In this document: positions 3,311-20,718 of the stretch, in pieces | Layout of the letters: every line of letters starts with the position of its first letter | Position numbering within the stretch: the first letter of the stretch is position 1 | Assembly (NCBI GenBank): GCA_017473615.1 | Contig: JAFUKL010000024.1 | Location: forward strand, 4,029-68,028 | Length of the DNA: 64,000 nucleotides | Direction of reading: 5' to 3' | From: Muribaculaceae bacterium | Lineage (GTDB): Bacteria > Bacteroidota > Bacteroidia > Bacteroidales > Muribaculaceae | Notes under the pieces: model-generated | Databases searched by the model: none | The model's input: only the letters and a program-made list of their open reading frames with translations | What the model was told of the DNA's origin: nothing | Position numbers and translations under genes: made by a program

Positions 3311-4204
3311 ATGGAATACAATATCAAGAGTATCAGGGAGGATTTCAAGGCAAAGGGTGTGTTTTACACAGATACGGCACTCGCTGAGCGACTGAAAGCA
3401 CTTGTAGGCTCATGCCATGAAGTGTACGACCCTACTTGCGGAAGCGGAAACCTGCTTGCTGTATTCGATGATGATGTGAAAAAATACGGTCAGGAGTTAA
3501 ATCCCGAGCAGTTGCAAGTGTGCAGGGAACGGCTCAAAAACTTTGAGGGTGTATCAGGCGATACGCTTGTATCTCCTGCGTTTATGGAACATCGGTTTGA
3601 AGCTATTGTAGCCAATCCTCCTTTTTCGGTAAAGTGGAATCCGCAGCCTGATGAGCGGTTTATGGGTGCTCCGTGTTTACCCCCTCCGTCAAAAGCCGAT
3701 TATGCCTTTCTCTTGCATATTCTTTATTTGCTTGCCGATAACGGGCGTGCCGCAGTGTTGAATTTCCCGGGCGTGCTTTATCGCGGGCAGCGTGAGGGTT
3801 CAATCCGCCGGTGGTTTGTGGAGAAGAACGTGATCGAGCGTGTGGAATGTGTCCCCGGCGGGCATTTTGTGGATACTTCGATTGCAACGTGTATAATAGT
3901 GCTGAACAAAGCGAAATCCACTACGGATATTGTGATGTGTGATGTGGAGAAAGGCAAGGAGCGTACCGTTTCTATTGATGAAATCCGCAGTAATGATTAT
4001 AACCTCTCTGTCAACTCTTATATCGTAGAAGAAACTCCGGTAAAGGTTGTTGACCTTTGGGAACTGGAATGTAAGGCTCGAGCCGCTGCTGTAAAACGGA
4101 TAAAAGCGGAAATCGAATTTTCCATTATGGTGAGCCGTTTCGAGGGTTGGGATGTATCCCCTTTTCTTGACGAGCTGAAAGATGTGATTGACAGCTTTAG
4201 ATAA
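3311..4204 (+). CDS. N6-adenine DNA methyltransferase (gamma-class, HsdM/N6_Mtase-like), orphan
   Basis: SAM-binding motif I is VYDPTCGSGNLL and catalytic motif IV is IVANPPFS. No adjacent specificity or restriction gene is present. Confidence 0.85.
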   Translation: MEYNIKSIREDFKAKGVFYTDTALAERLKALVGSCHEVYDPTCGSGNLLAVFDDDVKKYGQELNPEQLQVCRERLKNFEGVSGDTLVSPAFMEHRFEAIVANPPFSVKWNPQPDERFMGAPCLPPPSKADYAFLLHILYLLADNGRAAVLNFPGVLYRGQREGSIRRWFVEKNVIERVECVPGGHFVDTSIATCIIVLNKAKSTTDIVMCDVEKGKERTVSIDEIRSNDYNLSVNSYIVEETPVKVVDLWELECKARAAAVKRIKAEIEFSIMVSRFEGWDVSPFLDELKDVIDSFR

Positions 4205-4797: not shown

Positions 4798-6126
4798 CTA
4801 AAAAGAGCCTTCAAAATCGAGCATTTCCTTATTGGCTTTCGTAAGATGTCGGGTGTAGGTATCGGTAATCGCAAGAGAACTGTGTCTTGCTTGGTCTCGA
4901 ACGGCAAGGTTGCTTACTTTTTTGTTTAACATCTCTGTGATTCCTGTGTCTTTTAGCGAGTAAAAGGTGTAATCTTTGTCTAATCTTAGTGCTTTGCTCA
5001 TTTTTTGCCAATGTTCAGTGAGCCACCTTGCTGTTATCGGTCTGCTGCCAGGTTCTAAATTGTCTGAAAATAGATAATAATCGGGTGGATTGTTGAATAT
5101 GCGAATGTCTAATGCATATTCTATTACTTTTCTTGGAATTGTTATGGTTTGGGTTGTTCGGTTTTTTGAATCTTCTGCCGGAATTGTTAAGGTACTTTCT
5201 TTCAGATTAAAATAGTATAGCTTTAACCTTGTTTGCTCGATTGGTCGAATACAACAATAATACAATAGATAGCATGAAAATAAAAAATGACGGTCGTTTT
5301 TTAAAAGCCATTCTGCAATTTTTTTTATGGTGTCACTTGGTATCAATTTTCGCCGTTTTTGCATTAATTTTTTTGGAATAGGGGAGATTAGCTGTGCAGG
5401 ATTGGATTTGGTATATCCTTTCTCGATACACCAATTTAATAAGGTCTTTAAGAAAGTTAAGCACGCATTACGATATATGCCGGAAAGCCCCAAGTCTACA
5501 AATATGTAATCAAGGAAATCATTGCAGAAACGTAAATCCATTTGGTAGAGATATGTTATCGGAACAATACGATTTTCGTTATACTCAAGCAGCTTTTTTA
5601 TCCTATAATAATGATTCTGATGTGTAAGTTCTCTAAAAATACCTTCCTTAAACATTTTGTCATTATACCGGCTATACTTTTCCAATACGTCTTTAAATAA
5701 AATGATACTTTCAGTATCTTGCTCTATCCATGGATTCCAACCTGTTATTAATTGTTGTGTCAATCTTTGTATTATAGAATGGGCGTATTTTCGTCGTTCC
5801 TTGATTGATTTAATTCTGTTTATCTTGATTCTTTTGCGACGCATTTTTTTGAACAAAGGATCGTATGCGTAGAACTCTATGTACCACGCTTCTTTGTTTT
5901 CTCGCAGTTTTGGGAATGTGAATTGCTTGATTTCATCAAGCGAGGCGGTATGTGAATTGTTAATTCCAATCCGCGCGGAAGACTTCTTTTTAAGCATTTT
6001 TTTATTTAGCGAATTGTGGCAATCCGCTAAATCCCGAACAAAATTTGTCCCGATTTTGTCTCGGATGTTTTGAGAAAAGAAACGCAACAAGCTGATTTCA
6101 GGCTCGTTGCGTTCGCAGTTCTGCAT
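4798..6126 (-). CDS. Tyrosine site-specific recombinase / phage integrase
   Basis: The C-terminal catalytic region has ..RHSSLAITDTYTRH.. and YSLKDTGIT. The N-terminal arm-binding-type segment is TFPKLRENKEAWYIEFYAYDP. The true start may be the internal Met at 5997 (MLKKKSS), because the 6126 start sits 3 nt from the tRNA. Confidence 0.9.
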   Translation of the reverse strand: MQNCERNEPEISLLRFFSQNIRDKIGTNFVRDLADCHNSLNKKMLKKKSSARIGINNSHTASLDEIKQFTFPKLRENKEAWYIEFYAYDPLFKKMRRKRIKINRIKSIKERRKYAHSIIQRLTQQLITGWNPWIEQDTESIILFKDVLEKYSRYNDKMFKEGIFRELTHQNHYYRIKKLLEYNENRIVPITYLYQMDLRFCNDFLDYIFVDLGLSGIYRNACLTFLKTLLNWCIEKGYTKSNPAQLISPIPKKLMQKRRKLIPSDTIKKIAEWLLKNDRHFLFSCYLLYYCCIRPIEQTRLKLYYFNLKESTLTIPAEDSKNRTTQTITIPRKVIEYALDIRIFNNPPDYYLFSDNLEPGSRPITARWLTEHWQKMSKALRLDKDYTFYSLKDTGITEMLNKKVSNLAVRDQARHSSLAITDTYTRHLTKANKEMLDFEGSF

Positions 6127-9493: not shown

Positions 9494-10051
9494 TTATTTA
9501 TTGTTACTTTCATTGATGTTCTTCATGAATAATTTTTCAAGAAGTTCCATGTCAATTGAAATATCTTTGTTGTTCTTTAATTCCTCATACAGAAGTTTCA
9601 AATAGTCGTTTCCCTTGATTTCAAGTACCATATAATTAGTGTATTGTCCCGTTTTTTCATCCTTAGTCCAACGGTCACACACGATAGTCGCATTGGTAAT
9701 AGTCTTGTTGACGGTTACTTTGGTTTTATCGTTAAGTAGTGACTTGGAAACGGCTGACAATTGTCCTTCAGATAGGGCAGTTGTATAGTCCTCTGTGGTT
9801 GCGTTGACGGTTCTGGAAAGTGTTGCTGCTAAATCGGCTGAAGCCGCAACTTGCGCCTTTTTGCGTGCTGAGGTTTCGCTATCCGATTTTCCTGATGCCC
9901 ACGCACGTATTACGCCTTCACCGCTTTTCAATTCGGAACAAGGCATTACGAATGTTTTTATAGGGCTTTTTTCTACTTTTTTTGAAGACCCGCAACTGCT
10001 TAAACATAGAGTTCCCAAAAGAACAGCTACGTATAAAAGATGAGATTTCAT
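9494..10051 (-). CDS. LPP20-like lipoprotein (185 aa), last gene of the nine-gene operon
   Basis: Lipobox LCLSSCGSS. The helical segment SARKKAQVAASADLAATLSRTV resembles the LPP20-family A..A...A...LA pattern. Confidence 0.7.
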   Translation of the reverse strand: MKSHLLYVAVLLGTLCLSSCGSSKKVEKSPIKTFVMPCSELKSGEGVIRAWASGKSDSETSARKKAQVAASADLAATLSRTVNATTEDYTTALSEGQLSAVSKSLLNDKTKVTVNKTITNATIVCDRWTKDEKTGQYTNYMVLEIKGNDYLKLLYEELKNNKDISIDMELLEKLFMKNINESNNK

Positions 10052-10061
10052 TTTGTTTTGT

Positions 10062-11405
10062 TTAATTTAAGTTTAACTTCTTTATTTGATTGGGTAAATT
10101 ACGGTTAACACGCTTCATAACTTCCCTTATGCACTGTGCAATTGTTTCATTTGCTTTCTTGTGTACGGGAGAGAGAACTTTAACTCTGTCAACCGAATAA
10201 TCCAGCAAGAGTTGCTCACTTTTATTGTTATAAATCTTAATAGTCAAAGTACAATAACAGGTGTTCAAATCGTAGCTGCCTCCTGTAACGGTATTACCGT
10301 TCTCTATTACGCTTGATATTTCAATGAAACATTGAGCAGCGTCGGGGGCTTCGGTTACAACGAAATGGTTATTGGTGAACAAACTCCTTAGTTGTCGCTC
10401 GATACCTTCCAAGTCGTTGTCGTCGCTGATGTGAATATAAGCTGTTACCGGACTGTTCTTTAATTGAATGGTAACTTTAGCCGATGGCATGGCTTGATTC
10501 TTGAGCAGTTGCTTATAGGCTTTTGGCAAGGAGTTCAAGAAAGAGTCATCAATGGAAATACGTACTTCCTGTACCTTGTCTTTGGATGTGATGTTTGTAA
10601 TGTAAAATTCGGCTGTTCCGGTATGGTCGGTCTCTATAGCATCAGATACAGCACCGCTGCCGGAAATAAATTCGGCTTTAAGTTTTACGTTAGGAATCAC
10701 ATTACCGTTTTTTGAAAGGCAACCGGCAATCGGTGTCGGGACAGCCTTAAATGACTCTCCCTCCACAAGAGTTACATTAGTTGTAATAGCCATGTTGCTG
10801 AAAACGTTGACATAAGCAGAGTAAAGTTCTGAAGGTATATTTATTTCATGACCGTTTTCTATGGTTGTCAAGTTCATAAATACCCAAGGCTCTACGGTCT
10901 CAAGTCCTTTCCCATACAATTGTACCGCTTGCGAAAGATTCATCGTATTTTCGGCATTCTGCCCTTTATGCAAATAGTCAAGTCCTGATTGTATTGCATG
11001 TTTTCTGCGGGATTCGGCATTACGAGCATAAGTGTCCTTGTCGAGAACGTAATATACATAGTATGTTTTATCGGTTTTGTATGTATCTTTCAGTTCTTGA
11101 CCTTCGAGCCATGCTGCAAGTGAACTCTTGATTTTGTCCTCAAACATGTCACGGGACTTTCCGTCTACGTCTATAAGATGCAAGAATGAGTTGTTCTCTA
11201 CCTTGACGGCAATTTGTGACGAAATATCAGCCAAGGCGTTCTGGGTAGCTTTCTTCATATAGTCGGCATCGGAAACGGATGCCATGCCTATACCTACGTA
11301 TTCCTTATCTGATATCGGGTGTGTTGTAACCCAATCAGGCACATTTGCTGCGATACCGAAACATACGCATACCGAAAGCAGAAAAGTTGATAAAATCTTT
11401 TGCAT
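10062..11405 (-). CDS. LPP20-domain secreted protein (447 aa)
   Basis: It has a signal peptide. PDWVTTHPISDKEYVGIGMASVSDADYMKKATQNALADISSQIAVKV matches the LPP20 lipoprotein domain signature. The C-terminal ~250 aa are unassigned. Confidence 0.75.
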   Translation of the reverse strand: MQKILSTFLLSVCVCFGIAANVPDWVTTHPISDKEYVGIGMASVSDADYMKKATQNALADISSQIAVKVENNSFLHLIDVDGKSRDMFEDKIKSSLAAWLEGQELKDTYKTDKTYYVYYVLDKDTYARNAESRRKHAIQSGLDYLHKGQNAENTMNLSQAVQLYGKGLETVEPWVFMNLTTIENGHEINIPSELYSAYVNVFSNMAITTNVTLVEGESFKAVPTPIAGCLSKNGNVIPNVKLKAEFISGSGAVSDAIETDHTGTAEFYITNITSKDKVQEVRISIDDSFLNSLPKAYKQLLKNQAMPSAKVTIQLKNSPVTAYIHISDDNDLEGIERQLRSLFTNNHFVVTEAPDAAQCFIEISSVIENGNTVTGGSYDLNTCYCTLTIKIYNNKSEQLLLDYSVDRVKVLSPVHKKANETIAQCIREVMKRVNRNLPNQIKKLNLN

Positions 11406-11423
11406 AACGTTCTGTATTAAAGT

Positions 11424-12683
11424 TTAGAATTTTGATACCGTTAAAATGATTGTTCCACCTTCAACACGAGAGTCGGCTTGAATACCTTCATCTCTTAAAT
11501 CTCTTTTAAGTTGAGATAAGAATTTAAACGGATTCATTTTTCTGCCTTTTTTATCGGCTTTAGGTATCATGATATAATCAAAAATCACTTGTTCGTCAAC
11601 GACACCTTGCATGTGATAATCACCATTGTGAGCGTTATCGTCAAGCCAGTACATGACGAAATCGGCAACGCTGTCGCCATTGGTGCATGCCGGGTCTTGC
11701 AGGCTCATCAATGTATTGCCCGCATCGTTAAGCAATGTGATCTGTAGAGATGTACGGGTAGGCTCGGAATAATACTTCAATATCTGTTCCAAGAAAGGCT
11801 TTATGTTGTCTTCTACGGCATATCGGCACAACGCATCCATAGGAGCAGTGCGGTAATACTGTTTTGAACCGCCCGTTTGTGAACCCCAATCGGCATTGGT
11901 GGCAACGTCATGAGCATGAAGAATCAATGATACTCGGCTACCTAAAGATGTGGTTTCTTTTTTCAAGTCTACAACTACGTAGACATCAGCATTGGAACTT
12001 GTGAGAAGAGTTCTGTCATTGGATTCCACTGCACCGGCATTCTCCTCATATTGTCCGCGTCGTTCTGCGCTTTGAATGTGTGACAATAGATCCATAGTGC
12101 GTATATCGCAATTGTTGAACCCTTTTTTAACTTCTTCCACAGCCGTGCGGCGGTCGAAGTCATTCTCCAAAATGGATTTATAGCTTTCTCCGTCTTTCTT
12201 GAAAGGAACTACAATTACCGTGGGTTTCGGCTGAGTCTGTTTTATAGTTTCTTGCTTTTCCCGGTAACCGGTATTCTTTCTTACGTCATTTATAAGTTGC
12301 GTAAGGCGTATGGTGATTCTATAAGTACCTTGGTGAACACCTCCCGATTTTTTTGGTTTAACATATTCCTCTGTTTCAACCAAGTAATGAACATATCGTT
12401 TGTTGAAATCGAAAAATGAATCGGTATATTTCTCATTAGCTTTAACGACAAGCGGTTTACCGTCATCCACCCCTTCTACACCCTGAAAAAACAGGGTGTA
12501 GAATAGAGATTGAATGGCATTTGCTTTACAACCGTCTTTACCGTCACCTACACCTGCCGATAAGAAGGTTCCTCTTACACCGCCGGTGGATTCCAAGCTT
12601 ACTATCGACAAATATTCTTCTGCTTTAACGGTGTTTATGCAGATGAATGACAGCAAACAAAGTATAGCAAATATTTTTTTCAT
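11424..12683 (-). CDS. Secreted protein (419 aa), an LPP20-like N-terminus plus an alpha/beta module; function unknown
   Basis: It has a signal peptide (MKKIFAILCLLSFICINTVKA). The gap to both neighbours is 10-18 nt. The central segment PTVIVVPFKK...AVEEVKKGFNNCDIRTMDL resembles LpoB/CsgG/TolB-N-type alpha/beta modules. Confidence 0.65.
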   Translation of the reverse strand: MKKIFAILCLLSFICINTVKAEEYLSIVSLESTGGVRGTFLSAGVGDGKDGCKANAIQSLFYTLFFQGVEGVDDGKPLVVKANEKYTDSFFDFNKRYVHYLVETEEYVKPKKSGGVHQGTYRITIRLTQLINDVRKNTGYREKQETIKQTQPKPTVIVVPFKKDGESYKSILENDFDRRTAVEEVKKGFNNCDIRTMDLLSHIQSAERRGQYEENAGAVESNDRTLLTSSNADVYVVVDLKKETTSLGSRVSLILHAHDVATNADWGSQTGGSKQYYRTAPMDALCRYAVEDNIKPFLEQILKYYSEPTRTSLQITLLNDAGNTLMSLQDPACTNGDSVADFVMYWLDDNAHNGDYHMQGVVDEQVIFDYIMIPKADKKGRKMNPFKFLSQLKRDLRDEGIQADSRVEGGTIILTVSKF

Positions 12684-12693
12684 ACGGTTTTAA

Positions 12694-13557
12694 TTAAAAA
12701 ATACCAAATGTCTTTTGCTCTTGAATTTGCTTGACTTTTAGAGGCTCTTTAGCTTGAGCTTCTTCGTCAAGGGCTGCATATTTTTCTATGATTACAAGAG
12801 CTTCTTTTTGTTTCTTTGTTACTTTACAATAAGATAAGGTTTCATCAACAACTTCTTCCACTTTAAGCTGAGCAACTTCTTTGTAAACAGTGCGTCCTGC
12901 TCTTGTGGTAGCATCCATGATTGCAAAATAATCGCCTTTCTTAACTCCGTGGCTTGAGCCTACATTAATGTAGCACTTTTGCAATTTTTTCTTTTTAGCT
13001 AAATAATCTGAAGGATTTACGGTTCCTTCGATAGGCAATATTTCTATTATTAATTCTTTTAAGTCAAGATCAATCATGTCGGCTGCTCCTGCGATGGCTT
13101 TTTCTTTAGTGTCATATAATTCAAGCGCATCCATTAAGCCGCCAAGACCTGAAGGAGAGTGGTCAAAAGCCTTAGTACCTACTGTGGTCTGTTCTTTTGC
13201 ATCGGTTACGGTAACGGTGTACTTAAGTACACAACCGTATTTGGTTTTTCCGTCTTTGACTTTTTGGTTGGTAGAAACGGTAAGTACATTGGCGTTCAAA
13301 ATGAAATCTGCCATTTCTTTTTGGCGTTTCTCAAGTTCCGGTTCAAGCCCGCTGATAGTAACAGCATCAATAAGTTCAAATCGTCCTGTTTTTGTCAATC
13401 CGTCAAGAATAGCTTGGCGAACCAATACTGCATTATCATTTGATACAGCATCGGCTTTATTGATTTTTTCAACAAAAATACGTGGTTTCTCACTTTGTGC
13501 TTGTGCAAAAACTGCGGCACATACCATCATTGTAATTAGGAAAATAACTTTTTTCAT
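12694..13557 (-). CDS. CsgG/LpoB-like periplasmic protein (287 aa)
   Basis: It has a signal peptide. RIFVEKINKADAVSNDNAVLVRQAILDGLTKTGRFELIDA resembles the CsgG/LpoB N-terminal pattern. The C-terminal beta-barrel-like motif is INVGSSHGVKKGDYFAIMD. Confidence 0.65.
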   Translation of the reverse strand: MKKVIFLITMMVCAAVFAQAQSEKPRIFVEKINKADAVSNDNAVLVRQAILDGLTKTGRFELIDAVTISGLEPELEKRQKEMADFILNANVLTVSTNQKVKDGKTKYGCVLKYTVTVTDAKEQTTVGTKAFDHSPSGLGGLMDALELYDTKEKAIAGAADMIDLDLKELIIEILPIEGTVNPSDYLAKKKKLQKCYINVGSSHGVKKGDYFAIMDATTRAGRTVYKEVAQLKVEEVVDETLSYCKVTKKQKEALVIIEKYAALDEEAQAKEPLKVKQIQEQKTFGIF

Positions 13558-13593: not shown

Positions 13594-14754
13594 TTATAAT
13601 TTTGCTTGAGCTTCGGCACTGCCTAATTTGGCAGCCTTTTTGAAGTTCTTTCTTGCAAGCATATCGTTTATACCTACGTTGCCGCAACCGCTTTCATAGA
13701 TTATTCCCAGCATGTAGTAAGCTTTTGCACTTCCCGACTTGCTGAAATGACCTATAGCTTCAAGTCCTTCGCCGGCTTCGTATGCTTTCATCCCTGCTTC
13801 ATAATTTGCATCCGGCTTTTCTTCGGCAGCTTTGACCGTATTGTTCTTTTCACTTGCCGGTTCTTCGGTGTAAACGGTTTGGGGCTCTTCTTTAACAGTC
13901 GGAGCCGGTTCGCTTTGCGGAACTGACGCCTCTTGAGTCTCTTGGGCTGTCGGTTCCATATCGTTCTGTTTGTTTTCGTTACCTCCTGATAGGGCGAAGA
14001 ATCCGATAATTGCTGCTAATACAATAATAGCTATAAACCATTTCATGTTGCTGCCTCCTCCTGTCTGTTTGTGTTCAACTGATTTTGTGTTATCTACCGG
14101 TGTGAAGTCCTTTGCTCCGACCTGCGAAATTTTTGTGTTTGGTGTACGTGCCGAAAAGGCTGCAGCTGTTGCAATGGGTGTGACTTCGGGCTGTACGGCT
14201 TTGACAGCCGGTTTTAATTCGGCTGTGAGTTCTTTCTCGATTTTTTCAGTACAGTCTTCCAAGTCGAGCCGGTTAGCCAATGAATTCATGATTTGTCGCT
14301 CGGTAAATCTTATCTCACCGTTTGTAGCAAGGTATAGTTTCTGAAATTCTGTGCGGTATTCATTAATGGCTTTCTTTTCGCACTCGATACAGCGGTTTTT
14401 ACCTTTCACTTTACATTCAAGGCATATTTCCTTACCGCATTTTGGACAACGTGCATGTTTCTCTTCAAGAGCGTTACCGCACACTTCGCAATATTCGGCT
14501 TTCTTCTCGTTCATAACGTAAGTGGTGTTATGGTTTACGGTAGAAGAATTGTCGACATTGGAAGTGTTTACATTGTTATGGGTATTGGATGTCTTGTTGA
14601 CACCACCCATAATATTGGCGCGTGCTCCTGCTCCTATAATGGACGTTTCTTTATCCTCGCCCGATGTTGGAATTTCAGTGCCGCAGTTTTGGCAGAATCG
14701 TTCGTCAGATTCTATCTGTGTTCCGCATTCAGTGCAAAATTTTTCTTTGTTCAT
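13594..14754 (-). CDS. Bitopic membrane protein: N-terminal Zn-ribbons, one TM helix, C-terminal Sel1-type repeat
   Basis: CTECGTQI..FCQNCGTEI; CEVCGN..CPKCGKEICLECKVKGKNRCIEC; TM helix WFIAIIVLAAIIGFFAL; Sel1/TPR-like C-terminus AKAYYMLGIIYESGCGNVGINDMLARKNFKKAAKLGSAEAQ. Confidence 0.8.
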   Translation of the reverse strand: MNKEKFCTECGTQIESDERFCQNCGTEIPTSGEDKETSIIGAGARANIMGGVNKTSNTHNNVNTSNVDNSSTVNHNTTYVMNEKKAEYCEVCGNALEEKHARCPKCGKEICLECKVKGKNRCIECEKKAINEYRTEFQKLYLATNGEIRFTERQIMNSLANRLDLEDCTEKIEKELTAELKPAVKAVQPEVTPIATAAAFSARTPNTKISQVGAKDFTPVDNTKSVEHKQTGGGSNMKWFIAIIVLAAIIGFFALSGGNENKQNDMEPTAQETQEASVPQSEPAPTVKEEPQTVYTEEPASEKNNTVKAAEEKPDANYEAGMKAYEAGEGLEAIGHFSKSGSAKAYYMLGIIYESGCGNVGINDMLARKNFKKAAKLGSAEAQAKL

Positions 14755-14783: not shown

Positions 14784-15056
14784 TTACTTTTCTTTTTTCT
14801 GAATAATTGTTTCGGAAGGTTCATCCGAAGATATTGATGTTACACAAAAGTGTTCCGTTTGTTCTTCCACACTTCCCGTAACATATACTTTCTTACCGTG
14901 ATAGGGGGCAAAGAATGTATCATCGACCGGCATGCAGTTCGTTCTGTAAAGAGTGTATTCTTTACCGTCATTGCATTTCAAAAGAGCTGAGTGCCCCTCT
15001 GATTTGGTTCCGATATTCTGCATGCTATATTCAATTATTCCGAAAAGAGTTATCAT
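14784..15056 (-). CDS. Small cytoplasmic protein (90 aa), function unknown
   Basis: The ORF sits between two operon genes with 20-29 nt gaps. I recognised no motif. Confidence 0.55.
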   Translation of the reverse strand: MITLFGIIEYSMQNIGTKSEGHSALLKCNDGKEYTLYRTNCMPVDDTFFAPYHGKKVYVTGSVEEQTEHFCVTSISSDEPSETIIQKKEK

Positions 15057-15076: not shown

Positions 15077-17416
15077 TTACTTAATGGAAGAACCGCAATT
15101 TTCGCAGAAAGCGGCATCGGTATCAACCTTTTCTCCGCATTCCGAGCATACTTTTGCCGATATGACTTTTTCTTCTGTGGGCTGTTGTTCCTCAGGTCTC
15201 GGATTGTTATTATCTGCACTTCTTTGTGGTTTTGGTTGTTTTGCGGTATTATCGCGAGTGGTATAATCCAAAGCGCGATCATAGGCGGTATCCATTCTGC
15301 TTTCTTGGCGGCGGATACGTTCGTCTTGTTCACGCAGTAATCTGTCTTTTTCGTCCAGTTTTTCCTGTGTGCGTTGGTTGTTGTCGGCACTTCTTTGAGC
15401 CTGCATACCGCTTGCCATGGACATCATGTTATTCATCATTTCAAACATGCGTGCTTTGGTGTCCTGCTGATCGGCATCACGTGCAGCTCGTTCGGCATCT
15501 ATGCGTGCGTCCAATTCACGTCTTTGAGCTTCCAAACGTTCTGATGTTTCACGCTCGCGGTCAGCATTGTACTTGTTTTGAGCGTATGCAACAGCACCGT
15601 CGCCGCCGTTCAATGCCCATACTTTTTCATCAGAAAGCGTCTGCGCATTTTCCCACTTCATGCGTTCTAATTCTTCAGCATTCTTCAGGCGATTCTGTTC
15701 CATTTCAGCCTCATGCTTGCGCTGGTTTTCCCGAGATTGTTCTTCTGCGGCTTGCATTGCAAGGAATTGACGGAATTGTGCATCATCGTCTTCACGTTTG
15801 AGGTCGTGCTGTCGTTTAACGTCATTATAGGCAATGTCACGCTTGCGTTGCTCTAAATCAAGTTTGGTATCTTCTATGGCGCGTTGTTGTTCCAATTTCT
15901 TATTGAAACGGCTGTCGGCATAATCGTCACGTAATCCTTGTATTTCAAGTTCCTTTTTGACGATTACTACTGCTTTTTCGGTTTCACCTTCAAGACGAAC
16001 CCTTTCAAATTCTATTCCATCGCGTAATTGCATCATTGCTAAGGATACGTTACGCTGATGAGAATTTGTCTTTACTTGATGAGCAAGAGTTTCAAGCTCG
16101 TCCTGTCTGATAAGACCTGTCTTGTATATTTCAGCCAATGCAGCTTGTGTCTCATTCTCGGTTTTCGCTTCACGTATCTTTCGCTCGTTAAGTAACAAAT
16201 GCTCGAATTTAAGCAATTCATCCTCGTTAAGCAGTTCTTCGTTGTGCTGATTCCTGTTTATGGCATTAAGTTTTTTTCTTAAATCAAGTTCAGTTTCAGC
16301 TTGGTGAATCTCTTGTGCATTGACTGCATCGGCAAGGCGATTTTTGAAATCATTTGTGCGGAGCAGGTAATCAAGTTCTTTCTCAGACAGGTATAATTCC
16401 TGACTTAATTGTGAAAAACGCTCCAAGTCTTCGCTTTTAGCCGAAATTTCAACGATACGAACCACAGAAAGCCCGAAGAACGTCTCTGCAGCAACTGCAT
16501 TTATACGGTCTTTTAATAGAGTATGCAGGTCGGTAGGAATGCGGTTTGATTCAAGTTCGGTATCGTATAGTGCATCTTGCAGAACTACGCGTATCGTATC
16601 AGCTATTTCATCAACAATTAACGCTGAATTAAGCTTTTGTTTGTCAGTCAGGTAATGTAGTATGAATCGTTCCGGATCGGAAATTTTGAAATAAGCGTTT
16701 ACACCTATACCCATTTTGATGTGGCGGGTTTGTATCTGCATCGGAACGAAGTTCTTATAATCATCAAGATTACTTTGCTTAGCTCCTATCATTAACGGAA
16801 ATGCCTTATCCAAGAGTATTATGACAGAAAAAGCCGCACCTTTTTCGGCGTTTTCCAAAATCACTTTCTGCTGATGCAAATATATTTCCTCTTCTGTCTT
16901 AACACCTGTGTTGTTCTTTTTTGTGCCGGAGAAGAGGTTTACTATCATTTGCCAACCTTTTTTCAACATTTTCCCTACAGAAAAGGATGAAGGCGAAGAG
17001 GTATTGGCCAAATCGTATGTTCCTCCGCTTATAGATGCTATGGTACGTCCGTTGGCTCTTATGTAGGCAGTTGTTCCTTCGGGAACTATTATACCTTGTA
17101 TTTTATTGTATGTCTCAAATTCAGATTCAGTTATTACGCGGGCTACTTGTCCCGGTTGAACGTTCCAGTAAATTCTGCCTTTTGCCGTATTCATGTCGTC
17201 CGGAACTTGAACGGGAGATGCTTTGGTCTCGGCTTGAGCGTTTACCTCAACCGTTGCTACGGTTAATTTATATCCGCATCGGGTGCAGAATTTTGCTCCC
17301 GGCTTCAATGGTGCATTGCATTGAGGACATAGGGATGAGGTCTCAATTTTTTGTCCGCATTGGGTGCAGAATTTTGCACCTTCGCGAAGTTCTGAATTAC
17401 ATTTCGGACAATTCAT
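15077..17416 (-). CDS. Zn-ribbon / SPFH (YdjI, COG4260-like) / long coiled-coil / Zn-ribbon protein (779 aa)
   Basis: Two N-terminal Zn ribbons (CPKCNS..CTQCGQKI; CPQCNA..CTRCGYKL). The segment GRIYWNVQPGQVARVITESEFETYNKIQGIIVPEGTTAYIRANGRTIASISGGTYDL is typical of YdjI/'virion core protein-like' SPFH proteins. About 350 aa are E/R/Q-rich coiled coil. The C-terminal Zn ribbon is CSECGEKVDTDAAFCENCG. Confidence 0.8.
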   Translation of the reverse strand: MNCPKCNSELREGAKFCTQCGQKIETSSLCPQCNAPLKPGAKFCTRCGYKLTVATVEVNAQAETKASPVQVPDDMNTAKGRIYWNVQPGQVARVITESEFETYNKIQGIIVPEGTTAYIRANGRTIASISGGTYDLANTSSPSSFSVGKMLKKGWQMIVNLFSGTKKNNTGVKTEEEIYLHQQKVILENAEKGAAFSVIILLDKAFPLMIGAKQSNLDDYKNFVPMQIQTRHIKMGIGVNAYFKISDPERFILHYLTDKQKLNSALIVDEIADTIRVVLQDALYDTELESNRIPTDLHTLLKDRINAVAAETFFGLSVVRIVEISAKSEDLERFSQLSQELYLSEKELDYLLRTNDFKNRLADAVNAQEIHQAETELDLRKKLNAINRNQHNEELLNEDELLKFEHLLLNERKIREAKTENETQAALAEIYKTGLIRQDELETLAHQVKTNSHQRNVSLAMMQLRDGIEFERVRLEGETEKAVVIVKKELEIQGLRDDYADSRFNKKLEQQRAIEDTKLDLEQRKRDIAYNDVKRQHDLKREDDDAQFRQFLAMQAAEEQSRENQRKHEAEMEQNRLKNAEELERMKWENAQTLSDEKVWALNGGDGAVAYAQNKYNADRERETSERLEAQRRELDARIDAERAARDADQQDTKARMFEMMNNMMSMASGMQAQRSADNNQRTQEKLDEKDRLLREQDERIRRQESRMDTAYDRALDYTTRDNTAKQPKPQRSADNNNPRPEEQQPTEEKVISAKVCSECGEKVDTDAAFCENCGSSIK

Positions 17417-17444: not shown

Positions 17445-19133
17445 TTATTTAGTCATTATTACTTCTTTTATTTTGCCGTTTTCTGTGGTTCTTACTATGT
17501 ATGTCATGGATATTTCAGAACCGGGCAGAACGTCATAATTAAATCTCAATTCTTTACTGCCATCGGCGTATTTTACCTTAAATACACTGTCGGGATTCCG
17601 CGGCTCTATTCCGTAATACTCGTAGAGATGGCTATTGATGCTGTTACGTATTTGTGAAATGTTCTTATCCACATTTTTACGAACCAAGTTAAGTATAGAA
17701 TTGCCGTTGCCGGATAAATCCAATTGTTCCATTTTGCAGTCGTATGCTTTTCCGCTCATTATGCCTTTGGACTTGTCCAACGTCTTTGGTCGGTCTTGGA
17801 ACATTTCGGGCGTGACTGCAAATAATGATGGGTCGCCGAAAAGGTTGAACTCCGTAACTGTTGATATTGTGTTAGGATTTATTTCGCAATCTCCTTCTTG
17901 GTTCAAAACCATATCTCGGGCAATTAATAAAGCTTGTCCTGCGCTGTATCCGCCTAATATTGAACTGATAAATCCCAATGCCATTGTATCGGCATATACA
18001 GGTAATACCGGAGTATATTCAGTGATAGAAACAGGATCTACGTTTCCCCATGCGATGCGTGACGAACCTAAAAACAACAGTGCTTGGGCATATAATGCCG
18101 AAAGTAACATGCTGTGCCGCTTGTCAAGACCTATGAATCTGGCACCGTAGCATGCTTCGCATACTATGATGTTTGGAACACGGCAGGAACTTATATGCTC
18201 GGGTAATAAAACGGGTATAGAGACTTTCTGCCCTTTATGTGCTCCGAACCATCCTCTTGCTTCAAGGGCGTTACATCCGTGCAGATTATAATAGTATAGA
18301 TGCGCCTTGTCATGAAAAACACGGTTTACATTTTCGGTAGTGATACCGGGTGACAGTATCAAGCGGCGGAAATAGCAATCGGCTGATATGTACCCGTCCA
18401 GATTCCTTAATTTATTGGCTGCAATCAAATCATCTATGACTGTAGCAGAAACATTTTTCCAATTAGGGTCACATTGACCGTAGGCTTCTGTAAGCGGGAT
18501 TCCTTCTGCACCTTTTACGGCTCTTTCCAAATAGTTACGGAAATCTTCCGATGTCGTATCTTCTCCTATCGGCAGACGTCCTACAAGAAAAGCCTGCTGA
18601 TACCTGAAAATCTGTGCATTTTGCAGCATAGGCATCATGTTTTTGCCGTAGGGGAATGCGTATAGTATATCGGTGTCTATCGTTTTGTCTTTTACATCGA
18701 TGCAATAGTGCGGAATACGAGGCATCGGAATGATGTCGTTACCACCTATTATAAACAGATAATTGATTTCCCGCTTGTCGGCTTGACGATTGTATGCATC
18801 GGTTAATACATCCATGTAGCCGGATATGCCGCTATCGGGATTGGGCGGTGTAACTATATTGTCGGATACATAGTTTCCTGTATCAACCAAGCTGTATGAA
18901 ACGCCGTAACTTTGTTTTACACCAATATAGTATTCCAGTAGTTTATGAACGGTATGTTCTTCTGTGCGCAATTTGGCGGCAAGACGCTTCACGTCGGTAA
19001 ATATGATACCGGATGCGTAAAAATTATTTTTGACCGCTGAATCCTGCGTATCCTCAGCTATCTTCGTTCCGCATTCAGGGCAAAATATCGCATCCTGTTC
19101 ATTTATCTTATAACCGCATTCCGGACAGTACAT
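17445..19133 (-). CDS. Zn-ribbon fused to a clan-CD (gingipain C25 / legumain / caspase-like) cysteine peptidase domain, cytoplasmic (562 aa)
   Basis: The N-terminus is CPECGYKI..FCPECGTKI. NYLFIIGGNDIIPMP resembles the C25 YLLLVGD..IP strand. Candidate His-Cys dyad: YYNLHGCN, then 43 aa later NIIVCEACYG (compare legumain EACESG and caspase QACRG). There is no signal peptide. Confidence 0.7.
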   Translation of the reverse strand: MYCPECGYKINEQDAIFCPECGTKIAEDTQDSAVKNNFYASGIIFTDVKRLAAKLRTEEHTVHKLLEYYIGVKQSYGVSYSLVDTGNYVSDNIVTPPNPDSGISGYMDVLTDAYNRQADKREINYLFIIGGNDIIPMPRIPHYCIDVKDKTIDTDILYAFPYGKNMMPMLQNAQIFRYQQAFLVGRLPIGEDTTSEDFRNYLERAVKGAEGIPLTEAYGQCDPNWKNVSATVIDDLIAANKLRNLDGYISADCYFRRLILSPGITTENVNRVFHDKAHLYYYNLHGCNALEARGWFGAHKGQKVSIPVLLPEHISSCRVPNIIVCEACYGARFIGLDKRHSMLLSALYAQALLFLGSSRIAWGNVDPVSITEYTPVLPVYADTMALGFISSILGGYSAGQALLIARDMVLNQEGDCEINPNTISTVTEFNLFGDPSLFAVTPEMFQDRPKTLDKSKGIMSGKAYDCKMEQLDLSGNGNSILNLVRKNVDKNISQIRNSINSHLYEYYGIEPRNPDSVFKVKYADGSKELRFNYDVLPGSEISMTYIVRTTENGKIKEVIMTK

Positions 19134-19162: not shown

Positions 19163-20539
19163 TTATTTCTTCATGTATTTTTCTCTCTTTTCTGTCACTT
19201 TCTTGACATAATTCCGCGTCTCTTGAGCCGGAAGATTGACAATCAAGTGGTTGTATAGTTGAGAGTACTCATACTTGTTGATTAGCGCAAATATCTTTTT
19301 GCTCAGATTCCTTGTGTTGTCGAATGCTCGGCACACATTGCCCGGACCGGTATTGTATCCGGCAATCACGCATAACCGTTGACAGTGCGTATCGTTTACA
19401 TCTGAGAATGTATTCATAAGTATCCTTAAATAAGCCGTACCCAACTCAATATTGTTGCGAGGGTTGTATAGATAGGCAGGTTCAGGTATCCATGATTTCT
19501 TGTACACATATTGATATGCCGTAGCACCTCCATATTTTGGGACTAATTGCATCAATCCGTATGCGTTAGCCCAACTTTTGGCTTCAGGATTGAACGCCGA
19601 TTCCACTTCCATAACGGCAAAAATCAAAGGTTGTTCCACTTGGAATTTTTTAGAAAATTCCGCTACAATGTCTTTATATTTATATGCGTTTTTTGAAAGG
19701 TTGTCGGCAACGAGGCTCATTTGTACTTGTACTACTTTACGGCTTTTTCCGTCATTCCCGATTATTGATGATGTTTTCTTGTTGATTTGTTGCGCAATCT
19801 TTTGAGCCAAAGAAGACTTGTTATTCTTGTCTTTAAGCGCATTTGCTCTTTCCTCGGCTTTCTTACGAGCATTATCCCGCTTTTCGGCTAAAGAACTTTT
19901 TGAAACGTCGGAACTCTTTTTATCCTTAGCGTTGTTGACAGATGTACCGTTGGAATTACCCTGTGATTGGTTTACAGCCAACGGCTTGCCTTTTACTGTG
20001 GGTTTAGGTGGAGCCGGACGGTTATTGACTGCAACTGCAACCGTGTCCAAATCAAACATTGAGAAATCTACAATATTATCAAGAATCGGAGCTTTGGTTA
20101 GCGGTTCTGATTGGTTAGCTGCCTTGAATGGATTTGATGAGCCTCGGCTGTTTAGTAATCGTTCGATTGTTTTTGCCAAACGACTGTTTATGGCTGAAAT
20201 ATCGGAATTTTCGTCTTCATCTATTGCCACCTCAATCAGAATATCTCCTTTCTCGAAATTGACTATGGAGCGCGAGTGGAAATCGGTATCATATTCGACC
20301 CATTCTTTGGGTGTGTCGTTTATGATTGTGTCGCCACCCCAAATATTAGTAATGGATTTTACGAATTGTTCATAGTCGGCAAGAGCTTGTGCTTCGTATG
20401 CTGCGAAATCCGAACGTTGTTTTGCCGCATCTTGCTCAAAACTCATTTTCATCGAATCCAGTGGGGTAGATGACGTTTGGCTGAATGCGCTTAACATACT
20501 TGCCAAGAATACTATTATGATGAGTATATATTTTCGCAT
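19163..20539 (-). CDS. MltC-like membrane-bound lytic murein transglycosylase (458 aa), first gene of the operon
   Basis: It has a signal peptide. The SLT domain carries the catalytic Glu context VMEVESAFNPEAKSWANAYGLMQL and AGYNTGPGN. The central linker is low-complexity and K/S/N-rich. Confidence 0.85.
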   Translation of the reverse strand: MRKYILIIIVFLASMLSAFSQTSSTPLDSMKMSFEQDAAKQRSDFAAYEAQALADYEQFVKSITNIWGGDTIINDTPKEWVEYDTDFHSRSIVNFEKGDILIEVAIDEDENSDISAINSRLAKTIERLLNSRGSSNPFKAANQSEPLTKAPILDNIVDFSMFDLDTVAVAVNNRPAPPKPTVKGKPLAVNQSQGNSNGTSVNNAKDKKSSDVSKSSLAEKRDNARKKAEERANALKDKNNKSSLAQKIAQQINKKTSSIIGNDGKSRKVVQVQMSLVADNLSKNAYKYKDIVAEFSKKFQVEQPLIFAVMEVESAFNPEAKSWANAYGLMQLVPKYGGATAYQYVYKKSWIPEPAYLYNPRNNIELGTAYLRILMNTFSDVNDTHCQRLCVIAGYNTGPGNVCRAFDNTRNLSKKIFALINKYEYSQLYNHLIVNLPAQETRNYVKKVTEKREKYMKK

Positions 20540-20681: not shown

Positions 20682-20689
20682 CAAATTTA
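20682..20689 (-). promoter_or_regulatory. Candidate Bacteroidetes -7 promoter box (TAAATTTG on the minus strand) for the nine-gene operon
   Basis: It matches the TAnnTTTG consensus. It lies ~140 nt upstream of the 20539 start and 20 nt downstream (in the direction of transcription) of a 9-nt G-run. Confidence 0.4.
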
Positions 20690-20709: not shown

Positions 20710-20718
20710 CCCCCCCCC
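20710..20718. repeat. Homopolymeric C9 tract (G9 on the minus strand) in the divergent intergenic region
   Basis: Read directly: ttttac ccccccccc aatt. It is embedded in a ~55-nt motif shared with 39805-39855, where the run is C7. Confidence 0.95.

Follow-up and report, generated by a model that had tools for sequence, protein, structure and literature searches.

A zinc ribbon-flanked protein with a predicted SPFH-fold core is encoded in a conserved four-gene module of Bacteroidota

SPFH proteins, among them stomatin, prohibitin, flotillin as well as HflK/C, are universal membrane scaffolds. The architecture of SPFH cages was solved recently, their purpose is debated, and the clearest cases are paired with a protease. 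In HflK/C and flotillin, the SPFH domain is normally followed by a helical extension. YdjI/SamI of Bacillus subtilis has no membrane anchor (PMC8581546). It is cytosolic and carries a C-terminal zinc finger, and its localisation to the membrane requires SamG, a protein consisting of zinc ribbon and TM helix, together with SamH (PMC8581546, PMC13713150). The C-terminal zinc ribbon is part of the standard YdjI layout (PMC8581546, PMC11237479) and is also carried by the YdjI-type proteins compared here. Genetic data from B. subtilis show that SamH is restrained by SamI (PMC13713150).

The gene described here, g3, is located in a window of 64,000 nucleotides, the whole stretch of DNA that was analysed, from a contig of a Muribaculaceae bacterium. 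A sequence-only reading of the window had proposed a protein of 779 aa at 15077-17416 with zinc ribbons at both ends, a YdjI-like SPFH domain and a long coiled coil. Translation of the ORF confirmed its length and position and placed it on the minus strand (Table 1). The three predicted ribbons of the CxxC...CxxC type, two N-terminal and one C-terminal, are indeed present, with CxxC pairs at residues 3/17, 30/44 and 757/771, and are recognized by Pfam (Zn_Ribbon_1, E=4.7e-21; DZR, E=1.4e-16). Between them lie a folded core of residues ~80-340 and a charged helix of ~380 aa. In an alignment of 40 sequences, the cysteines of zinc ribbon 1 are retained in at least 90% of the relatives, and the linker of residues 53-79 is not conserved. 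No TM-like segment was detected in g3 by hydropathy. The core motifs GRIYWNVQPGQV...GGTYDL are found in the translation, as are two SADNN motifs at residues 676 and 733, the second within the linker of residues 724-753. According to the alignment consensus, the SADNN motifs are not conserved across the relatives of g3.

Table 1. Features of g3 and neighbouring genes. Positions refer to the window; residues are those of the g3 protein unless another gene is named.
Feature	Position	Strand	Basis
g3 (P0001), 779-aa ZnR-ZnR-SPFH-helical-ZnR protein	15077..17416	(-)	ORF list and translation
Zinc ribbon 1, residues 1-25 (C3, C6, C17, C20)	17342..17416	(-)	Pfam Zn_Ribbon_1/DZR
Zinc ribbon 2, residues 28-52 (C30, C33, C44, C47)	17261..17335	(-)	Pfam DZR over residues 3-48
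Disordered linker, residues 53-79	17180..17260	(-)	pLDDT <50 at residues 52-79
SPFH-fold core (predicted), residues 80-340	16397..17179	(-)	AF2 models, Foldseek, hhalign
Proximal conserved helices, residues 341-450	16067..16396	(-)	Conservation and AF2 models
Long helix 1, residues 455-591	15644..16054	(-)	DSSP of AF2 model
Break between long helices, residues 592-605	15602..15643	(-)	pLDDT <50 at residues 590-612
Long helix 2, residues 606-723	15248..15601	(-)	DSSP of AF2 model
Met-rich patch within long helix 2, residues 657-672	15401..15448	(-)	Sequence and conservation
Pro/Gln/Asn-rich disordered linker, residues 724-753	15158..15247	(-)	pLDDT <50 at residues 721-753; composition
Zinc ribbon 3, residues 754-779 (C757, C760, C771, C774)	15080..15157	(-)	Pfam Zn_ribbon_3, DUF7575
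g1, MltC-like lytic transglycosylase with signal peptide, first operon gene	19163..20539	(-)	Pfam SLT E=4.7e-27, Mltc_N; NCBIfam MltC
g2, 562-aa partner, N-terminal zinc ribbon and Peptidase_C25-like (clan CD) domain	17445..19133	(-)	Pfam
g4, conserved small cytoplasmic protein (~80-aa core)	14784..15056	(-)	Synteny, motif
g5, bitopic, cytoplasmic zinc ribbons, TM helix (~238-258 of g5), periplasmic Sel1 repeat	13594..14754	(-)	Pfam, hydropathy
g6-g9, four exported/lipoprotein genes	9494..13557	(-)	Pfam; signal peptides or lipobox

Searches with standard models did not identify the core as an SPFH domain. The Pfam models Band_7 and Band_7_1 matched neither the whole of g3 nor the core at E<=10 nor any of 62 diverse relatives (20-63% identity), and NCBIfam yielded no SPFH match either. 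Profile searches of the PDB with phmmer and hmmsearch yielded no SPFH match. When 5.8 billion proteins were searched with a core profile, only the family itself was obtained, no hit having an E value in the range from 3e-16 to 1, and annotated Band_7 proteins were sought in the tail of this search but not found. The YdjI-type proteins serving as positive controls, SPFH proteins of the COG4260 type with a C-terminal zinc ribbon, were detected by the same models, ten of them matching Band_7_1 (PF13421) at E=1e-61 to 1e-94; matches of YdjI-type proteins to Band_7 (PF01145) were in the range of 1e-12 to 1e-18.

Profiles were also compared with each other. Aligned by hhalign to E. coli HflK, HflC, QmcA and YqiK, a comparator profile of four sequences only, the g3 core reached a probability of no more than 2%, which is not significant. 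Alignment of the core of the g3 family to verified Band_7_1 proteins yielded a probability of 87.7% (E=3.4e-6, 199 columns), and a repeat with 62 versus 17 sequences, from which ribbons and long helix had been removed, yielded 89.0% (E=2.3e-6). Reversed controls remained at 0.1-0.2%. YdjI-type proteins in turn align to the four E. coli proteins at 90-93%. At the profile level, the homology of g3 to SPFH proteins is therefore transitive, leading from the core to Band_7_1 and from there to the E. coli proteins. The evidence in these values of 88-89% is strong but not overwhelming, and since the Pfam models Band_7 and Band_7_1 are not matched, the homology is remote. Similarity to YdjI-type proteins extends to the ribbons, zinc ribbon 1 of g3 aligning to their C-terminal ribbon at 96.7%.

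Structure predictions were in agreement with these alignments. In a full-length AF2 model, the core was obtained with pLDDT values of 70-90 (pTM of the whole model, 0.44), and a core-only model from a separate alignment reached a pLDDT of 81.8 and a pTM of 0.74. Foldseek comparisons, which the sequence-only reading had suggested, returned only SPFH proteins as top matches of these two independent models. For the full-length model, the top 22 matches in the PDB were all SPFH proteins, HflK/C being the best (E=3e-5), followed by stomatin, prohibitin, flotillin, erlin and QmcA, and the top 13 matches in BFVD were all SPFH/Band 7 proteins. For the core-only model, all of the top 35 PDB matches had the SPFH fold, with FliL coming next. 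Foldseek probabilities of the SPFH-fold PDB matches were 0.97-1.00 for both models. The isolated SPFH domain of stomatin superimposed on the g3 models with TM values of 0.56-0.68 and an rmsd of 3.7-5 A, the full-length model giving 0.68 at about 4 A. As far as the models show, the g3 core thus has the SPFH fold. With the Foldseek matches and the hhalign values of 87.7-89.0% to Band_7_1 over ~200 columns, the description as a YdjI-like SPFH domain was right, despite the negative HMM searches. The g3 family is a divergent, unannotated offshoot of the YdjI/SamI (Band_7_1) branch in Bacteroidota.

YdjI/SamI proteins are the nearest sequence relatives of g3, the alignment covering their whole SPFH domain. 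Both lack an anchor, and in both a segment with methionines comes before a 'GAKFCxxCG' zinc ribbon at the C terminus; in YdjI-type proteins, the consensus GAGMxMGxxMAxxM stands ahead of the ribbons at the same relative position as the Met-rich patch of g3. In both cases the gene adjoins one for a membrane protein with cytoplasmic ribbon, SamG there and g5 here (PMC8581546, PMC13713150). Unlike YdjI/SamI, g3 is without Pfam match to Band_7_1 or Band_7 and, with 779 versus ~355 aa, twice as long. The family carries one to three additional ribbons at the N terminus and, in place of a short Gly/Met-rich linker, a helical region of 330-600 aa. Compared with YdjI-type proteins, the core is longer by an insertion of ~55 aa at about residues 136-195, which appears as an unaligned block in hhalign. 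Partners differ as well: a clan-CD protease, a small protein and a Sel1 protein for g3, PspA and the TPM protein SamH for SamI. The sequence-only reading had regarded the addition of an extended coiled coil and terminal zinc ribbons as non-standard. This does not apply to the C-terminal ribbon, which is usual for YdjI, nor to a helix following the SPFH domain, which is usual for HflK/C and flotillin. Three other features are non-standard: the long helical region, the SPFH insertion and the N-terminal ribbons replacing the anchor. In canonical SPFH proteins, the place of the N-terminal ribbon or ribbons of g3 is taken by a membrane anchor.

More distant systems share other parts of this arrangement. 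HflK/HflC-FtsH, stomatin/QmcA-NfeD and prohibitin-m-AAA resemble g3 in fold, in long helices after the SPFH domain and in an adjacent protease gene, and the SPFH-protease pairs HflK/C-FtsH and QmcA-YbbJ are represented among the Foldseek matches of g3. In contrast to HflK/C, stomatin/QmcA and prohibitin, g3 has no TM anchor and no detectable sequence similarity to them (hhalign at most 2%, comparator profile of four sequences), its neighbouring protease is a soluble clan CD cysteine protease instead of FtsH or an NfeD serine protease, and the NfeD partner of SPFH-NfeD pairs is absent beside g3. Flotillins (FloT/YqiK, eukaryotic flotillin-1/2) likewise have a very long helical region behind their SPFH domain, and flotillin complexes are top Foldseek matches of the full-length g3 model with alignments of up to 518 columns. 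They differ from g3, which has no hairpin or TM anchor, no Pfam match to Band_7 or flotillin families, zinc ribbons at both ends, and charge-rich helices without clear heptads. The major vault protein is a soluble cytoplasmic protein with an SPFH-like shoulder followed by a long helix, and the vault builds a closed cage. It occupies Foldseek ranks 18 and 23 for the g3 core, weak matches with E about 1e-3, and differs from g3 by its vault repeat domains and the lack of sequence similarity; the vault is a eukaryotic particle.

Residues 341-725 of g3 are predicted to be almost wholly helical and consist of D/E/K/R to 40%, or to 54% if Q/N are included. The proximal helices at the beginning of this region start right after the last SPFH strand in both AF2 models and correspond in position to CC1, the first wall helix of SPFH cages. 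They contain the family signature SEKELDYLxRTNDFKNRLA, in which E347 and N359 do not vary even among relatives at 20-35% identity, R353 and R360 being nearly invariant. Long helix 1 is 44% charged. The break is located in a conserved stretch, LSDEKVWALNGGDGAVAYAQNKY, in or around which S595, E597, V599, W600, A601, G604, G605, A608 and Y611 are identical in all of 40 relatives, and long helix 2 ends in the conserved MDTAYDRALDYTTR. A Met-rich patch had been noticed, and MFEMMNNMMSMASGMQ is found starting at residue 657; M657, M660, M661 and M664 are retained in at least 90% of 40 relatives, and at least five Met within 20 aa occur in 40 of the 62 diverse members.

The same region had been called a charged coiled coil of ~350 aa with RxxLExxR-type heptads. 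A long charged helical region is predicted there, but the coiled coil was not supported. Hydrophobic periodicity of 3.5 residues was not significant in the single sequence (p about 0.4), nor was heptad periodicity in a profile averaged over 40 sequences (p = 0.06-0.8), and the literal pattern R..LE..R does not occur in g3. With the heptad signal absent from the single sequence as well as from the alignment-averaged hydropathy, a canonical coiled coil was set aside; 'coiled coil' is unproven, and 'long charged alpha-helical region' is the safe wording. In view of the link between SamI and PspA, the possibility was considered that the C-terminal helical half represents a fused module of the PspA/ESCRT-III-like kind. 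PspA_IM30 and Snf7 did not match residues 361-744 at E<=10, no PspA or Vipp1 structure was obtained in the profile search of the PDB with g3, and this candidate was not supported.

The charge pattern bears on the function of the helices. In helix 2, 19 opposite-charge pairs at i/i+4 were observed compared to 10.4 +/- 2.6 in shuffled sequences, a pattern that looks ER/K-like. Judged from this resemblance to an ER/K single helix, a spacer fits as well as a cage wall. The protein could then serve as a rigid spacer, or ruler, within a trans-envelope machine, in which the SPFH domain would be the attachment point and ER/K helices would set the distance of the C-terminal ribbon from the membrane-proximal part. 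The lack of heptad periodicity is compatible with such a ruler, as are a helical region varying from ~200 to 600 aa across the family, short form included, with both ends conserved, and an operon in which a lytic transglycosylase is encoded together with four exported lipoproteins, as is the case for wall-crossing machines. Nevertheless, it appears quite improbable: opposite-charge pairs show only weak enrichment in helix 1 (18 versus 13.2 +/- 2.9), SPFH domains are oligomerisation and membrane-microdomain modules in every solved example, and helix positions such as D497, Y499, D501, Q547, F548, H568 and W600 are invariant in 40 relatives, which argues for specific packing and not for a generic spacer.

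The family comprises 392 close homologues of g3 of 740-825 aa. At 50% clustering there are 246 representatives, across which the layout is conserved, and one 90% cluster of homologues holds 347 member sequences. The proposed extensions should recur in orthologues, and both the helical region and the ribbons do. In the 62 diverse members, 326-601 aa follow the core without exception, an N-terminal ribbon is present in 48 (one ribbon in 34, two in 12, three in 2, none in the remaining 14) and a C-terminal ribbon in 49; a TM-like segment is absent in 60 and present in two. Sizes range from a form of 535 aa to forms of ~780 to >1000 aa. The short form (~535 aa) is without zinc ribbon 2, the first part of helix 1 (~438-505) and the break region, and the proximal helices are kept. 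According to a genome scan with a pattern derived from a 21-member alignment, the family is restricted to Bacteroidota, Bacteroides cellulolyticus being among the species listed. It is common in gut Bacteroidales of humans and animals, and its name at NCBI is only 'zinc-ribbon domain-containing protein'. A search for evidence of transcription retrieved the gene from DNA metagenome runs only.

Inspection of the gene neighbourhood showed that g3 is fixed in a module of four genes, encoding a zinc ribbon-clan-CD protease (g2), g3 itself, a protein of ~80 aa (g4) and a zinc ribbon-TM-Sel1 protein (g5). The module is syntenic across Bacteroidia and Flavobacterium and lies, in the Muribaculaceae contig, within a predicted envelope operon of nine genes (g1-g9). 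In almost all loci g2 adjoins g3, and the linkage persists in distant members: Sel1 and C25-like neighbours are still present at 27-31% identity, with rearranged gene order, and also accompany the short form. Products of g6-g9 were assigned as FlgT_C/LpoB-like, DUF6175, LPP20 and a 185-aa lipoprotein; these genes also accompany the module in Odoribacter, Butyricimonas, Bacteroides and Mediterranea, and in Alistipes they are displaced to an upstream position. The small protein g4 is syntenic in 26 of 32 loci and characterized by the motif GSKSEG...LYR...D.FF.PY.G. It matched nothing in Pfam, including NfeD at E<=10, and as a hidden NfeD partner it was rejected, since an alignment of 25 sequences reached only 0.1-0.2% with E. 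coli YbbJ and YqiJ in hhalign. In g5, which is also syntenic, the cysteines of the N-terminal ribbon and the Sel1 part are conserved. The position of g3 beside a caspase-like protease and a Sel1 membrane protein points to a scaffold-plus-protease module at the cell envelope.

The C25 domain of g2 was detected with E=4e-10 and 39.9 bits, the cut-off being 23. H285-G286 and C328 are retained across 31 orthologues, and the His/Cys dyad is intact, judging by the residues; neither a TM segment nor an export signal was found. Clan-CD proteases of the caspase/gingipain type and zinc ribbons are recurrent in prokaryotic conflict systems (PMC7159879), and an intracellular protease with intact dyad would suit an anti-phage or conflict system, in which g2 would be an abortive-infection effector and the ribbons of g3 a sensor or inhibitor. 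This is very unlikely. PADLOC gave no match for g1-g4 or g6-g9, and for g5 one weak match (PD-T4-6, E=5e-5) on a low-complexity stretch. The core domain of g3 was absent from 50,697 phage and 72,556 plasmid records, and the module is chromosomal and syntenic across families and classes of Bacteroidota, where it resides among envelope genes and not in a defence island.

A role as in SamI has to be considered as well. Here, g3 would mainly restrain or tune g5 as a signalling partner and report envelope stress, and g2 would be a downstream effector or be regulated independently. The closeness to the YdjI/SamI branch, the anchorless layout with C-terminal ribbon, the SamG-like combination of cytoplasmic ribbons and TM helix in g5, and the restraint of SamH by SamI in B. 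subtilis (PMC13713150) are in its favour. Pfam searches of the nine operon proteins, however, revealed no match to TPM_phosphatase or PspA_IM30, hence no gene resembling samH or pspA, and it is the protease gene that accompanies g3 most constantly, directly adjoining it in nearly all loci. Outside Bacteroidota, YdjI-type loci lack C25 and Sel1 partners and any other consistent partner. Their contexts are heterogeneous and uninformative with regard to a SamG-like partner in other phyla, so that the parallel between g5 and SamG is architectural only (zinc ribbon plus TM). On balance, a SamI-like regulator is unlikely.

The reading towards which we lean, with modest confidence, is that g3 is an anchorless cytoplasmic SPFH scaffold which is docked by the bitopic g5 and controls the protease g2. 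By analogy to other SPFH proteins, its SPFH domains and proximal helices would self-assemble into a ring or cage on the inner membrane's cytoplasmic face. The scaffold would be held there by g5, as SamI is by SamG and SamH, possibly via ribbon-ribbon contacts, and might confine or gate g2 in the way known from HflK/C with FtsH and stomatin with the NfeD protease. Through its periplasmic Sel1 end, g5 may couple g3 and g2 to the lytic transglycosylase and the exported lipoproteins that the operon encodes, in which case intracellular proteolysis would respond to the state of the envelope. A bolder version is possible but doubtful: a partner-docked, soluble-born cage of g3 would enclose the caspase-like protease and be wired via g5 to lipoproteins of the outer envelope and a dedicated peptidoglycan lyase, forming a trans-envelope device for regulated proteolysis specific to Bacteroidota, with ribbons in place of TM anchors and an ER/K hairpin of variable length setting the size of the cage.

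The g3 family, invisible to the SPFH models of Pfam despite its frequency in gut Bacteroidales, extends the SPFH-protease theme to an intracellular enzyme of the caspase/gingipain type. It also extends this theme to an anchorless scaffold that needs recruitment by partners, comparable to the poorly understood YdjI/SamI system. The natural variation in length among its members provides a tractable system for relating helix length to the size of SPFH assemblies. The gene at the centre of a conserved envelope operon of nine genes is now assigned a fold and a hypothesis.

The open reading frame of g3 was borne out on the minus strand with 779 codons, and the opposite strand is stop-rich there. The encoded protein, P0001, contains zinc ribbons at both ends, three in total and of the CxxC...CxxC type (residues 3/17, 30/44, and 757/771; Pfam Zn_Ribbon_1, E=4.7e-21; DZR, E=1.4e-16). 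A Met-rich patch (MFEMMNNMMSMASGMQ) starting at residue 657, two SADNN motifs at 676 and 733, and a highly charged region, 40% D, E, K, or R between residues 341 and 725, were likewise present as described in the sequence-only reading. The literal pattern RxxLExxR, also described there, does not occur in P0001.

From profile searches, an SPFH-type core (residues about 80-340) was not apparent. Pfam matches to Band_7 or Band_7_1 were absent from whole P0001, from the isolated core even at E<=10, and from all relatives analyzed (0/62), and no SPFH structure in the PDB was matched by phmmer or hmmsearch. A core-profile search retrieved no annotated Band_7 protein; all matches (51/51) were members of the own family, followed by a gap from E=3e-16 to E=1. 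Comparison of the g3 family with an alignment of E. coli HflK, HflC, QmcA, and YqiK by hhalign yielded 2% at most. The proposed SPFH core was recovered by Foldseek with two AlphaFold models, for both of which the top ranks were occupied by SPFH proteins only. With the full-length model (mean pLDDT 68.6, core 70-90), these were the first 22 places in the PDB, HflK/C at E=3e-5 being followed by stomatin, prohibitin, flotillin, erlin, and QmcA, and the first 13 in a viral library. The isolated stomatin SPFH domain compared to this model with a TM of 0.68 and an rmsd of about 4 A. The second model covered only the core and was predicted from another alignment of greater diversity (pLDDT 81.8, pTM 0.74); it matched SPFH-fold proteins in the first 35 places, and next FliL, which is itself SPFH-like. 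Judged by these predicted structures, the g3 core has the SPFH fold.

To place the core, YdjI-type comparators were taken from non-Bacteroidota loci matching only the zinc ribbon in the genome scan. Screening of their ORFs recovered proteins of about 355 aa with double GAKFCxxCG ribbons at the end. Ten of them are Band_7_1 (E=1e-61 to 1e-94) and Band_7 (1e-12 to 1e-18) proteins by Pfam, and therefore serve as positive control for the negative results with the g3 family. The claim of a YdjI-like domain was upheld by hhalign, which gave 87.7% for the family core against YdjI-type proteins (E=3.4e-6, 199 columns) and 89.0% for 62 cores against 17 YdjI SPFH parts with ribbons and long helix removed (E=2.3e-6, 201 columns), compared to 0.1-0.2% for reversed-sequence controls. 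The alignment extends from the N-terminal strands (IVPEGTTAYIRANGRTIASISGGTYDL vs LIVRESQAAVFVYEGQIADQFPPGRYTI) through the last strand. Since YdjI-type proteins in turn match the E. coli SPFH set (90-93%, E=2.7e-7 and 1.8e-6, 169-170 columns), the family joins canonical SPFH proteins via the YdjI branch, and we regard this identity of g3 as very likely.

YdjI/SamI (Band_7_1) is the closest known family and alike in layout. The zinc ribbons are of the same type (96.7% by hhalign), and a Gly/Met-rich segment just N-terminal of the YdjI-type ribbons corresponds in relative place to the Met patch of P0001. In contrast to YdjI-type proteins, P0001 contains about 55 inserted residues (about 136-195), modeled as a pair of helices whose loops are predicted poorly. 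Because g3 fails the Band_7_1 model and lacks the YdjI/SamI partners, we place it in a sister family of its own inside the SPFH superfamily rather than in Band_7_1. The only such architecture in a published comparative-genomics survey of Psp partners is that of YdjI, in which band-7 is joined to a C-terminal zinc ribbon (PMC11237479). YdjI-type loci of other phyla showed no C25 or Sel1 neighbour. Directly upstream of two YdjI-type genes, from Ardenticatenales and Bacillota, related ORFs of 167-211 aa were found (L036, 2785-3420; L074, 8531-9034), beginning ...(L/K)(A/M)(H/R)(N/K)IPG(Y/F)(S/E)GYKNKE..., which may specify a conserved YdjI partner unmentioned in the B. subtilis literature searched; in L036, a 148-aa ORF with zinc ribbon and transmembrane segment precedes it.

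In the AlphaFold prediction, the core is followed by shorter helices up to about residue 450 and then by two very long ones, 455-591 and 606-723. The proposed coiled coil could not be established, because a 3.5-residue periodicity was not significant in the single sequence (p about 0.4) or in hydropathy averaged over 40 relatives (p=0.06-0.8), and opposite charges at i/i+4 are enriched (18 vs 13.2 +/- 2.9 expected in helix 1, 19 vs 10.4 +/- 2.6 in helix 2). The long helices could form a cage wall, as those of flotillin do, or stand as single helices of the ER/K type. No feature of the family varies more than helix length. Sequence conservation nevertheless extends beyond the core, numerous residues of the long helices and of the break separating them being invariant in 40 close relatives; that g3 is simply a spacer or ruler appears improbable.

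A word-indexed search of 5.8 billion proteins detected 392 relatives. Among the 120 matches listed, nearly all have 740-825 aa, all contain zinc ribbons and no other domain by Pfam, and the sole source name is "zinc-ribbon domain-containing protein", in Butyricimonas. An exhaustive phmmer search of 1.84 billion cluster representatives with core residues 60-360 matched 246 proteins, the majority of 600-1000 aa. When one genome per prokaryotic species was scanned, full-length relatives were confined to Bacteroidota (Odoribacter, Bacteroides, Mediterranea, Alistipes, Rikenellaceae, Paludibacteraceae, Prevotella, Muribaculaceae, and Flavobacterium). Across 62 aligned members (20-63% identity), ribbons and helical extensions are retained: 48 carry N-terminal ribbons (one in 34, two in 12, three in 2), 49 a C-terminal ribbon, 40 a Met-rich window, and all 326-601 aa C-terminal of the core (median 435), while 60 are devoid of a transmembrane-like segment. 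The strongest signature, SEKELDYLxRTNDFKNRLA, directly follows the core. A shorter form, about 535-540 aa in length, is abundant (P0303, P0306, P0318, and others; clusters of 182 and 205 sequences); it lacks the second N-terminal ribbon, residues about 438-505, the inter-helix break, and the distal end of helix 2, the rest being kept. Two of the 62 aligned members contain a GYF_2 domain (best E=1e-6). A number of representatives reach 975-1279 aa, with putative extra N-terminal domains and a core beginning at residue 370-620.

The gene g3 is the third of nine co-directional, tightly spaced genes (gaps of 10-36 nt), annotated by Pfam/NCBIfam matches and hydropathy.

Features of the g3 operon and its surroundings in the window
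Feature	Position	Strand	Annotation	Topology
Operon g1-g9	20539 to 9494	-	nine genes
g1			MltC-like lytic transglycosylase	signal peptide
g2			N-terminal zinc ribbon, Peptidase_C25-like domain	no TM
g3	15077-17416	-	ribbon-SPFH-helical-ribbon protein P0001	no TM
g4	14784-15056	-	90-aa protein	no TM
g5			cytoplasmic zinc ribbons, periplasmic Sel1 repeat	one TM helix
g6			FlgT_C/LpoB-like	signal peptide
g7			DUF6175	signal peptide
g8			LPP20	signal peptide
g9			185-aa lipoprotein	lipobox
Nine-G run	20710-20718	-	upstream of g1
-7 box	20682-20689	-	Bacteroidetes type, TAAATTTG
Methylase gene	3311-4204	+	N6 DNA methylase
Integrase gene	4798-6126	-	tyrosine integrase

The -7 box lies about 20 nt downstream of the G run on the transcribed strand, and the run could allow phase variation of the entire operon by slipped-strand mispairing. 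The methylase and integrase genes, a few kb from the operon 3' end, may represent an integrated element or restriction-modification remnant.

By tblastn with the nine proteins, g2-g3-g4-g5 were found adjacent and in the same order in almost all of 32 loci, including Alistipes, Rikenellaceae, and Flavobacterium. The lipoprotein genes and g1 lie beside this module in Odoribacteraceae and Bacteroidaceae, and upstream in Alistipes. Sel1 and C25-like genes, in changed order, also neighbour two remote members (975 and 1117 aa, 27-31% identity), and a short-form locus (L091, 9001-10608) has the same module. L091 has no adjoining lipoprotein or transglycosylase gene, and radical-SAM genes downstream. 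In a Butyricimonas-like metagenome contig (L002, 1-8221), a mobile-element block (resolvase, SSB, HU-like, small ORFs) replaces the 5' part of g1, leaving a 148-aa SLT remnant and g2-g9 intact; apparently, the module can persist without its own transglycosylase gene. At the most distant member examined (P0272 in L088, core 23% identical), no C25 or Sel1 neighbour was recognisable in a co-directional row of unannotated genes including an AAA ATPase; the scaffold may have another set of partners there.

In g2, His285-Gly286 and Cys328 are kept in 31 orthologues and constitute the clan-CD catalytic signature of caspase/gingipain-type proteases; by its sequence, g2 is probably an active cytoplasmic cysteine protease. 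For g4, no family match was found; its conserved core of about 75 aa (G.L......GSKSEG..A.L....G.E.Y.LYR....P..D.FF.PY.G..V.V.G.) is followed in some genomes by a variable Lys-rich tail (...RLPRKLKKKLKK). PADLOC reported nothing relevant for the operon proteins, and the g3 core was unmatched in phage and plasmid collections; a conflict system is a highly improbable reading of the module.

A functional model was built on the SPFH fold, YdjI-branch homology, lack of an anchor, ribbons at both ends, family-wide layout, and an obligate module joining g3 to a cysteine protease, cytoplasmic and probably active, and to a bitopic ribbon-Sel1 protein, by analogy with solved SPFH assemblies and SamI (PMC8581546, PMC13713150). 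Accordingly modeled, g3 would be brought to the underside of the inner membrane by g5, perhaps through contacts between their ribbons, would oligomerise there via SPFH domains and proximal helices, and would confine or gate g2. The periplasmic Sel1 part of g5 would connect this assembly with the proteins that the operon exports. Such a g5-docked oligomer controlling g2 has, in our estimate, an even chance of being correct; identity and function taken together stand slightly better than even. That g3 acts instead as a SamI-like regulator of g5 seems unlikely. SPFH proteins paired with proteases are a known theme (HflK/C-FtsH, stomatin-NfeD), and the combination in g3 was not described in the literature searched. 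It comprises an anchorless scaffold with N-terminal ribbons and a helical region of 330-600 aa, a clan-CD protease, and a Sel1 coupler in an envelope operon.
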